Sequence record: OR515477.1
DNA length: 64,000 nt
Origin: Escherichia phage Es2
Strand: one strand, 5' to 3'
Both the position numbers and the translations under genes were made by a program. Below are positions 249-5,088 of the stretch, piece by piece (position 1 is the stretch's first letter; every line of letters starts with the position of its first letter). The notes beneath the pieces were generated by a model that ran no database searches, was not told where the DNA came from, and saw only the letters and a program-made list of their open reading frames with translations.

Positions 249-436
249 AACGATTAGTTAGATTTAAGTGTTGTGGTTCCGAGCACATTTTCACACATCT
301 TCGTGAATTTAAAATGTGTGATTGTGGTAAATCAGGCTATGACTCAGGAGATGGGTTCTACACCCGTACTCTAGGGAACTTCAATGATCTAGAATTTGAA
401 GATCTCGAAAAACAAGATAAACCGACCGTTGGCTGA
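245..436 (+). CDS. hypothetical Cys-rich small protein
   Basis: Track ORF; ATGA overlap with upstream ORF; 3' end overlaps predicted tRNA by about 14 nt. Confidence 0.4.
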   Translation: MKRLVRFKCCGSEHIFTHLREFKMCDCGKSGYDSGDGFYTRTLGNFNDLEFEDLEKQDKPTVG

Positions 437-498
437 ATGGCTTAGGCGAAGGATTGCAAATCCTTTTTATGTGAGTTCAAATCTCATGCGGTCGTCCA
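423..498 (+). tRNA. tRNA-Cys (anticodon GCA)
   Basis: Hand-folded: acceptor CGACCGT/GCGGTCG, anticodon stem AAGGA/TCCTT with loop TTGCAAA, T-arm GTGAG-TTCAAAT-CTCAT, encoded CCA. Confidence 0.65.
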
Positions 499-650: not shown

Positions 651-733
651 GGGTCGTTAGCCAAGCGGTTTGGCGGTGGACTGTTAATCCATGTCGAAAG
701 ACAACGTAGGTTCGAATCCTACACGGCCCGCCA
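651..733 (+). tRNA. tRNA, anticodon GTT (Asn-decoding) with unusually long variable arm
   Basis: Acceptor GGGTCGT/ACGGCCC, D stem GCCA/TGGC, anticodon loop CTGTTAA, 13-nt variable region, T-arm GTAGG-TTCGAAT-CCTAC, CCA. Confidence 0.6.
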
Positions 734-835
734 AATTCTGTGTAGAGTTAAGTAAACCGGTAGCCAACCAGCTATCATTGCTGATATCGAATTCAGCCAC
801 AGATACCATTTTCATTAATAACTGAGGAAACAAGC

Positions 836-3242: not shown

Positions 3243-3321
3243 GGGGAATGGGTCTGCATGGAGTGGACACCTCGCTTGCACCGAGGACATCAGAACGGTT
3301 CGATTCCGTTATTCTCCACCA
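3243..3321 (+). tRNA. tRNA-Ala (anticodon TGC)
   Basis: Acceptor GGGGAAT/ATTCTCC, anticodon stem CCTCG/CGAGG with loop CTTGCAC, T-arm AACGG-TTCGATT-CCGTT, CCA; 7-nt variable loop. Confidence 0.65.
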
Positions 3322-3326
3322 AATAC

Positions 3327-3403
3327 GCGTGATTGATGGAATGGGCATACATACCGTCCTTAGAAGTCGGGTTTTGAGGGTTCGAATCCCTTGTCACGCA
3401 CCA
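3327..3403 (+). tRNA. tRNA, anticodon TAG (Leu-decoding) with short variable loop
   Basis: Acceptor GCGTGAT/GTCACGC, anticodon loop CTTAGAA with one stem mismatch, T-arm GAGGG-TTCGAAT-CCCTT, CCA; isotype uncertain. Confidence 0.5.
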
Positions 3404-5013: not shown

Positions 5014-5088
5014 GCTCCTAAAGCATTGCTGGCGATGCAGTTGCCTTGTAAGCATCTGAACCGGGTTCGATTCCTGGTGGGAGCACCA
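5014..5088 (+). tRNA. tRNA-Thr (anticodon TGT)
   Basis: Acceptor GCTCCTA/TGGGAGC, D stem GCAT/ATGC, anticodon loop CTTGTAA, T-arm CCGGG-TTCGATT-CCTGG, CCA. Confidence 0.65.

Follow-up and report, generated by a model that had tools for sequence, protein, structure and literature searches.

Is a phage tRNA that has an asparagine anticodon and an extra hairpin still a tRNA for asparagine, and what might the hairpin be for? Both questions arise at positions 651 to 733 of a 64,000-nucleotide stretch of Escherichia phage Es2 DNA (sequence record OR515477.1), referred to here as the window, where a gene of 83 nucleotides has the anticodon GUU and a 13-nucleotide variable region. The answer we judge probable is that the molecule is a genuine tRNA-Asn(GUU) with a body of class II type, encoded in an early tRNA cluster, charged by asparaginyl-tRNA synthetase (AsnRS) and replacing host tRNA-Asn that has been cut.

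The gene and its fold

Read from the sequence, the gene lies on the plus strand and includes an encoded CCA. Its parts are:

651-733, plus strand: the tRNA-Asn(GUU) gene, found by ARAGORN and by Rfam RF00005 (59 bits), 83/83 identical to tRNAN of AJ604531
651-657, plus strand: acceptor stem, 5' strand GGGTCGT, pairing with ACGGCCC at 723-729, with 1-72 a G-C pair (sequence, covariance model, fold)
658-659, plus strand: TA spacer between the acceptor and D stems (sequence)
660-674, plus strand: D arm GCCA / AGCGGTT / TGGC, stem 660-663 with 671-674, loop 664-670 (sequence, fold)
675, plus strand: position 26, a G (sequence)
676-692, plus strand: anticodon arm GTGGA-CTGTTAA-TCCAT, stem 676-680 with 688-692, loop 681-687 (sequence)
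683-685, plus strand: anticodon GTT, reading AAC and AAU (ARAGORN, Rfam model)
693-705, plus strand: variable region GTCGAAAGACAAC, 13 nucleotides (fold, covariation in relatives)
693-695 with 700-702, plus strand: variable stem GTC/GAC, enclosing GAAA at 696-699 and followed by the tail AAC at 703-705 (fold)
706-722, plus strand: T arm GTAGG-TTCGAAT-CCTAC, stem 706-710 with 718-722, loop 711-717 (sequence, covariance model, fold)
723-729, plus strand: acceptor stem, 3' strand ACGGCCC (sequence)
730-733, plus strand: discriminator G73 at 730, then the encoded CCA at 731-733 (sequence)

ARAGORN calls exactly 651-733 as tRNA-Asn(gtt). The Rfam model matches the gene over its full length (model positions 1-71) with a score of 59.0 bits against a gathering score of 29 (E = 3.3e-10), which ranks it fifth among the 15 Rfam tRNA matches in the window. 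The model puts the anticodon loop at 681-687 with full posterior probability and treats 10 nucleotides of the variable region as an insertion. The minimum-free-energy fold is a cloverleaf with a separate GUC-GAAA-GAC hairpin (-30.5 kcal/mol, z = -2.3). A preliminary description, made from the letters of the sequence, had seen a clean acceptor, D stem, T arm and CTGTTAA (GUU) anticodon loop, and the sequence, ARAGORN and the Rfam model all give this same layout. The 13 nucleotides that it placed between the anticodon and T stems are those counted directly at 693-705, where they form the hairpin. It had named a covariance model as the possible refutation of its assignment; ARAGORN and Rfam left the anticodon in the same place, with a score above threshold. 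Its suggestion of a tRNA-like RNA is disfavoured, as the encoded CCA end and standard T loop suit a working tRNA.

Hairpin arms of this kind are normally confined to the tRNAs for leucine, serine and tyrosine. On the criterion of a base-paired variable region of at least 10 nucleotides the molecule belongs to class II, having 13 nucleotides, a stem of three base pairs and a GAAA loop. On the criterion of a three-pair D stem with a G.A pair at 13:22 it does not, as it has A13-U22 and four Watson-Crick pairs.

The gene itself is already known: GenBank AJ604531 and numerous further records list it as tRNA-Asn. AJ604531 ('Bacteriophage 5 tRNA gene region') holds the identical gene (83/83), annotated tRNAN with the codon AAC, and the depositor's note states that swapping the anticodon to CUA makes tRNAN an amber suppressor. 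That the derivative suppresses implies that the AJ604531 tRNA is expressed, processed and used by ribosomes. The gene is present at 99% identity or more in 105 phage records, a few annotation pipelines writing 'tRNA-Asx' or missing it. A search of 5,426 E. coli genomes with the 83-nucleotide gene gave no match, a result that says nothing about its origin. Judged from its sequence, 651-733 is very probably a functional Asn tRNA. It would be transcribed with its neighbours and matured to an 83-nucleotide RNA with its own CCA end.

Two of the matching records are oddly labelled. In the 5.7-kb record OR848495.1, 'Listeria phage LM 4-14-1', the enterobacterial T5-like tRNA-Asn region is present at 97% identity, and MG065650.1, 'Campylobacter phage B15', matches a coliphage Asn tRNA. 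Probably the host labels are wrong or the samples were contaminated.

A class of long-armed phage tRNAs

The extra hairpin is more than chance, because relatives of the gene keep the stem by compensatory changes. In their alignment the variable stem changes on both sides (GUC/GAC, GUUC/GAAC, AUCC/GGAU, GUCA/UGAC, GGC/GCC) around GAAA or GCAA loops. A strict parse gave 44 distinct long-armed relatives with 24 distinct stem sequences. G73 is present in all 44 and the CCA is encoded in 31; the hairpin begins at the first variable nucleotide in 34 and is followed by a 3-nucleotide tail in 38, and its loop is GAAA in 25, GUAA in four and UUCG in three. A possible Levitt-type 15-48 pair with the last base of the arm was seen in 15 of the 44, against 11.4 expected, on a position numbering that is imperfect.

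A covariance-model alignment, itself fitted to the model, comprised 57 distinct sequences, and of 79 aligned rows 71 had the Asn loop CTGTTAA and eight were other long-armed tRNAs (Cys, Trp, Tyr, Ser and Ile). Of the two core pairs of the arm, one is formed in 57/57 sequences, with four pair types, and the other in 55/56, with five. All seven acceptor pairs covary in the relatives, with 100% of cells paired.

The changes are not confined to the arm. The pair 13:22 is G.A in 36 of 88 long alleles against one of 107 short ones, and G stands at position 9 in 35/88 against 5/107; the G13.A22 D-arm core is one that these relatives share with bacterial class II tRNAs. The whole body of the long-armed tRNA-Asn thus tends towards the class II type, because the D-arm core shifts along with the arm.

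Distant BLAST searches combined with ARAGORN found tRNA-Asn(GUU) genes of 82-87 nucleotides in Novosibvirus, Epseptimavirus, several Straboviridae genera, Marfavirus, Phikzvirus and Phapecoctavirus. A search pattern made of the anticodon arm and T loop, with a long variable region required, matched at least 120 viral contigs. The same pattern matched 37 stretches among 185,579 cellular species, with one genome per species. ARAGORN confirmed a long Asn tRNA in only 17 of the 37, with 11 of these within arrays of at least seven tRNAs, and most of the other 20 had no ARAGORN tRNA call at the match. A scan open to either arm length gave 10 long and 70 short among the 80 matches listed. On these counts the long-armed tRNA-Asn(GUU), which is spread over several unrelated phage groups, is strongly enriched in viruses relative to cells, and the alignments indicate that many phage Asn tRNAs have conserved the extra arm. 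We found no published description of the class or of a function for the arm in the full texts searched; the T5 tRNA papers of the 1980s lie outside that literature, and the class may have been described before.

In cells, the long-armed tRNA-Asn is found chiefly in arrays on Micromonospora and Verrucosispora chromosomes (L258, L259, L263 and L287), where 23-36 tRNA genes lie within 8 kb and each array includes a long-armed tRNA-Asn(GUU) of 89-90 nucleotides. A different arrangement was seen at one of the 20 unconfirmed pattern matches, in a metagenome-assembled genome of the Saprospiraceae (L266, 5470-5930), where three tandem 128-nucleotide repeats precede one intact tRNA-Asn. In each repeat the 5' half of tRNA-Asn, as far as the anticodon arm, gives way to unrelated sequence, and the repeats look like stacked integration remnants at a tRNA-Asn gene.

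Arm length also varies in other phage tRNAs. The window's own tRNA-Leu(UAG), at 3327-3403 on the plus strand, has 77 nucleotides, a 5-nucleotide variable loop and A73, and so is class I-like, while the T5 tRNA-Leu(UAG) at the corresponding place has 85 and is long-armed. Short forms (74-79 nucleotides) make up a large part of the Leu tRNAs in the sampled viral contigs. With short Leu and long Asn tRNAs, arm length in phage tRNAs varies in both directions. Long variable arms capped by GNRA loops also occur on Cys(GCA) and Trp(CCA) tRNAs of phage contigs, and the Ile(UAU) tRNAs there reach 91-96 nucleotides (L019:9032-9115, L056:345-430, L058:1324-1409, L061:4387-4473 and others).

The amino acid carried

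The identity nucleotides for E. coli AsnRS are G34, U35, U36 and G73, the last of which is also given as an antideterminant for the tyrosyl and leucyl enzymes, TyrRS and LeuRS (PMC9976931). The window tRNA has all four, with G34, U35 and U36 at 683-685 in a 7-nucleotide loop and G73 at 730. It was compared with E. coli tRNA-Asn, tRNA-Ser and tRNA-Tyr sequences verified at 100% identity. With E. coli tRNA-Asn (asnT/U/V/W) it shares anticodon-arm positions 29-41, GUU and G73. The host molecule differs in its 5-nucleotide variable loop (AUGUC), U16, C28-G42, U1-A72 and a D stem with C13-G22, and its acceptor and D arms are unrelated in sequence to those of the window tRNA.

The arm resembles that of E. 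coli tRNA-Tyr (tyrT/V), which has the same 13-nucleotide variable region, GUC/GAC stem of three base pairs, 3-nucleotide tail and 7/5 acceptor/T lengths. Unlike tRNA-Tyr, which is marked by A73 and GUA, the window tRNA has G73 and GUU; it also has a GAAA loop instead of AUC and no unpaired base 5' of the variable stem, and its own D stem has four Watson-Crick pairs. A tRNA-Ser would be recognised by an arm of at least five base pairs, one unpaired nucleotide on its 3' side, and G73. Here G73 is present, but the arm has three base pairs and a tail of three nucleotides.

We infer that Asn is the amino acid carried, and consider this well supported, because the identity set is complete, the arm is Tyr-like rather than Ser-like, and positions 29-41 equal those of the host tRNA. 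Host AsnRS would charge the molecule through G34, U35, U36 and G73, while G73 would block TyrRS and LeuRS and the short Tyr-like arm geometry would avoid the seryl enzyme, SerRS; the charged tRNA would then decode AAC and AAU. The preliminary description had offered both an unusual tRNA-Asn and another isotype with a non-standard anticodon. The first is supported by the high-scoring cloverleaf, the AsnRS identity set, the G73 of the relatives and the curated annotation; the second is disfavoured by G73 as an antideterminant for TyrRS and LeuRS and by an arm geometry that is like that of tRNA-Tyr and unlike that of tRNA-Ser.

Long arms joined to class I amino acid anticodons are also found in nematode nev-tRNAs and in bacterial allo-tRNAs. 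Both differ in being charged according to their bodies (with Leu, Ser or Ala) and in causing recoding or suppression, whereas the window tRNA keeps the Asn identity set. The allo-tRNAs have 8/4 or 9/3 acceptor/T lengths, against 7/5 here.

Alleles, nucleases and the arm

The first 6.5 kb of the window match T5-like phages (Tequintavirus, Demerecviridae), with 98% identity to Escherichia phage IME178, and a 6-kb part of the window contains 16 tRNA genes by ARAGORN (15 by Rfam). The immediate neighbours of the Asn gene in this cluster are:

423-498, plus strand: tRNA-Cys(GCA), the upstream neighbour in the tRNA cluster (ARAGORN, Rfam, AJ604531)
736-808, plus strand: 'RNA3', a tRNA-like RNA, the downstream neighbour, starting 2 nucleotides after the CCA (rna3 in AJ604531 and T5)

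RNA3 is labelled 'tRNA-like RNA with unknown functions' in AJ604531 and T5, and adjoins both long and short Asn alleles. A terminal stem of six base pairs encloses two hairpins, of which one has the T-loop-like AUCGAAU; the 3' end is ACCA, and the fold has z = -3.4. The 152-nucleotide spacer at 499-650 folds no better than shuffled sequence (z = -1.8), a permissive Rfam search of 380-1120 returned three tRNAs and otherwise chance-level matches, and no promoter or terminator signal in 1-1300 exceeded shuffle expectation. Further along the plus strand, ARAGORN places a 79-nucleotide tRNA-Ala(UGC) at 3243-3321, with a G3.U70 pair and an irregular-looking D arm, which falls below the Rfam gathering score. 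Outside the window, beside the tRNA cluster, T5.081 (L298, 118-552) is named 'tRNA amidotransferase' in the T5 RefSeq record; its 144 amino acids gave no Pfam match at E <= 0.01, and we set it aside.

T5 has a different tRNA-Asn (T5t17) at the same locus, between tRNA-Cys and RNA3, and this short allele was found in 152 phage records. It shares with the window allele the locus, the anticodon, G73 and an encoded CCA, and differs in having 78 nucleotides, a 5-nucleotide variable loop and a mismatched anticodon stem (GCAUC/GUUGA, reading U36-A-A-G-U-U41). It is annotated in the T5 record as not convertible to an amber suppressor. The place of the spacer between tRNA-Cys and tRNA-Asn is filled by an open reading frame, T5.069 (T5 NC_005859, 34006-34524; L292, 8007-8525), which extends over the 5' end of the short tRNA-Asn. 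Its Pfam matches, T5orf172 and MUG113, are GIY-YIG-like, and in phage JLBYU40 it bears the label GIY-YIG nuclease; it is likely to be a homing endonuclease that moves with the short allele. The long allele of phage Bas32 differs from that of the window at positions 28, 32 and 42 only, restoring C28-G42.

A similar pair of alleles exists for tRNA-Thr(UGU), and which Asn allele a T5-like phage carries is independent of its Thr allele. Phage 5, Bas33 and IME178 have a tRNA-Thr(UGU) of 84-87 nucleotides with a GGA-GUAA-UCC variable arm. These resemble the window tRNA-Asn in being class I isoacceptors of the same cluster, with a GNRA-loop variable hairpin and a nearly host-identical anticodon stem; they differ in isoacceptor and in having a published strong counter-defence activity against the nuclease P2 OLD. 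The window's own tRNA-Thr(UGU), at 5014-5088 on the plus strand, is a short allele with a mismatched anticodon stem (GUUGC/GCAUC), identical over 75/75 nucleotides to that of Bas32. The Bas32 tRNA-Thr(UGU) resists P2 OLD by northern blot (2026 preprint).

These phages face host nucleases that cut tRNA. The AriB nuclease of PARIS cuts E. coli tRNA-Asn(GUU) between positions 40 and 41; its second subunit has been modelled on U16-U17, and changing U16 to C impairs cleavage of tRNA-Lys. P2 OLD cleaves tRNA-Asn(GUU) in vitro and needs a paired CNG motif, C28-N-G30 with C40-N-G42. The verified E. coli tRNA-Asn has both U16 and the paired CNG motif. The window allele has the same GUU anticodon as the host tRNA cut by AriB and P2 OLD, with C16 and with U28-A42, so that the paired CNG motif is lost.

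Going by experiments with related alleles, the likeliest use of the window tRNA-Asn would be to replace host tRNA-Asn cut in the anticodon stem by such Toprim nucleases, as an Asn tRNA that itself survives. The candidate determinants of resistance, relative to the host tRNA, would be C16, U28-A42 and the extra arm adjoining the cut strand. The arm, lying beside the 3' strand of the anticodon stem, would act as a shield while the stem-loop stays host-like for AsnRS, modification enzymes and the ribosome. We regard a nuclease-escape role for the tRNA as evenly balanced. That the arm itself is a determinant of escape is speculative and, on present evidence, rather doubtful. Adding a hairpin to isoacceptors of class I, above all Asn(GUU) but Thr(UGU) as well, might be a general phage strategy, not described so far, for blocking Toprim anticodon-stem nucleases, an extension that we put forward still more tentatively.

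The behaviour of Bas33 (HildyBeyeler) is consistent with protection. This phage has a long-armed tRNA-Asn and an 87-nucleotide long-armed tRNA-Thr(UGU), and is without tRNA-Lys(UUU). In the PARIS study T5 tRNA-Lys alone rescued it, so that its own long-armed tRNAs suffice under PARIS. Positions 28-31 and 39-42 of its tRNA-Thr are identical to E. coli thrU, including both nuclease motifs, and this long-armed tRNA-Thr has been reported to give strong counter-defence against OLD, better than T5 tRNA-Thr. In another system, the variable loop of a phage tRNA-Tyr is required to inhibit Retron-Eco7, whose PtuA-PtuB effector cuts host tRNA-Tyr. There, too, in phage tRNA-Tyr with a remodelled variable loop (SP15, T5), the arm of a phage tRNA matters for nuclease evasion, but that arm belongs to the isotype and is where the nuclease cuts, whereas tRNA-Asn normally has no such arm and in the window gene it is an addition.

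Several observations weigh against protection by the arm, or against the wider reading to which it belongs. Because class IIb synthetases dock on the variable-loop side of a tRNA, the arm could get in the way of AsnRS. The window allele keeps the AriB site, U36-A-A-U-C|C41, unchanged, and C28-G42 is kept in 70 of 88 long-armed relatives. Among the sampled viral contigs, long- and short-armed Thr(UGU) tRNAs did not differ in 5-base-pair anticodon stems (8/12 against 35/62), in the CNG/CNG motif (5/12 against 26/62) or in UAAUC (7/12 against 30/62). None of 85 tRNA-Lys(UUU), the prime target of AriB, had a long arm, and long arms are also seen on phage tRNAs for Cys, Trp and Ile(UAU), none of them known as a target of Toprim nucleases. 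Bas34 encodes its own tRNA-Asn, of the long or the short allele, yet needs T5 tRNA-Asn under PARIS. The 'T5 tRNA-Asn' of the PARIS study cannot be equated with the window gene, T5 having the different 78-nucleotide allele; it was presumably the short allele of the T5 reference genome, and the window allele was then not the one used.

Much of this would fit an ordinary supply tRNA whose arm is a tolerated quirk, inherited within a horizontally spreading lineage and kept by co-adaptation of the core, with no role in defence. Arm length is unlinked to the retention of nuclease motifs in Thr(UGU) tRNAs. It also seems labile in phages: long arms turn up on several isoacceptors, and many Leu tRNAs no longer have one. 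The covariation of the D-arm core with the arm fits structural lock-in. A tolerated quirk sits less easily with a class so strongly enriched in viruses over cells, with a stem kept by compensatory change across many phage families and a preference for stable GNRA or UUCG loops, or with the long and short alleles shown in T5-like phages by each of Asn and Thr(UGU), both of them Toprim targets. We regard such a quirk as a serious rival, though on balance somewhat unlikely.

The two Asn alleles might instead be maintained by homing, the short T5 allele being immune and travelling with the GIY-YIG-type reading frame while the long allele is the ancestral, cleavable target. This would explain the dimorphism and not the arm. 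The overlap of T5.069 with the 5' end of the short allele and its GIY-YIG-like Pfam matches fit such a scheme, as does the independent assortment of the Asn and Thr alleles, and there is a cited parallel in the T-even GIY-YIG endonuclease SegB, which cuts preferentially inside the T2L tRNA-Asn gene. Cleavage of the long allele by T5.069, however, is putative, and long-armed Asn tRNAs occur in many phage groups, where no search for such a neighbouring reading frame was made. Homing also gives no reason for the covariation of the stem. We consider it improbable as the explanation, though the reading frame may separately account for the coexistence of two alleles.

A switch of identity, with the class II body served by SerRS, TyrRS or LeuRS and AAC/AAU partly recoded, is very improbable. 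A long arm and G73 are features that SerRS uses, and G1-C72, G2-C71 and C11-G24 resemble the verified E. coli tRNA-Ser. The suppressor data also bear on it. E. coli tRNA-Asn(CUA) is inactive as a suppressor (PMC9976931); as the CUA derivative of the long allele does suppress amber, some synthetase other than AsnRS would accept the body once the anticodon is changed. With its own anticodon, however, the tRNA has the full AsnRS identity set and an invariant G73, which blocks TyrRS and LeuRS. Its arm has three or four base pairs in the long-armed family and a 3-nucleotide tail, as in tRNA-Tyr, against five base pairs and a 1-nucleotide tail in E. coli tRNA-Ser. Bas33 under PARIS needs no extra Asn tRNA, and recoding Asn to Ser across the proteome would be costly. 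Least probable of all is a Tyr-like decoy that soaks up nucleases aimed at the tRNA-Tyr variable arm (Retron-Eco7 PtuAB, Septu): the anticodon loop is one base from that of tRNA-Tyr, the GUC/GAC stem is the same as in E. coli and the PARIS study authors raised competitive inhibition by phage tRNAs as a possibility, but the stem sequence varies freely in relatives while the Asn identity elements are strictly conserved, the phage already has its own tRNA-Tyr, and a match of three base pairs is easily chance.

We therefore return to a tRNA-Asn(GUU) that probably carries asparagine and takes the place of cut host tRNA. Phage tRNAs are now seen as countermeasures to tRNA-cutting immunity, and the known escapes are point mutations around the cut site. 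If protective, the conserved arm on Asn tRNAs, and on some of those for Thr(UGU), would offer another, structural way out beside the documented mutation of cleavage sites, and a shielding arm would account for the frequency of long-armed tRNA-Asn in viruses and its near absence from cells. Because T5-like phages naturally have long and short alleles at shared loci, the question of the arm is directly testable. The long-armed family also implies that a class II body is presumably acceptable to AsnRS, EF-Tu and the ribosome, which bears on the rules of tRNA identity and on tRNA engineering.

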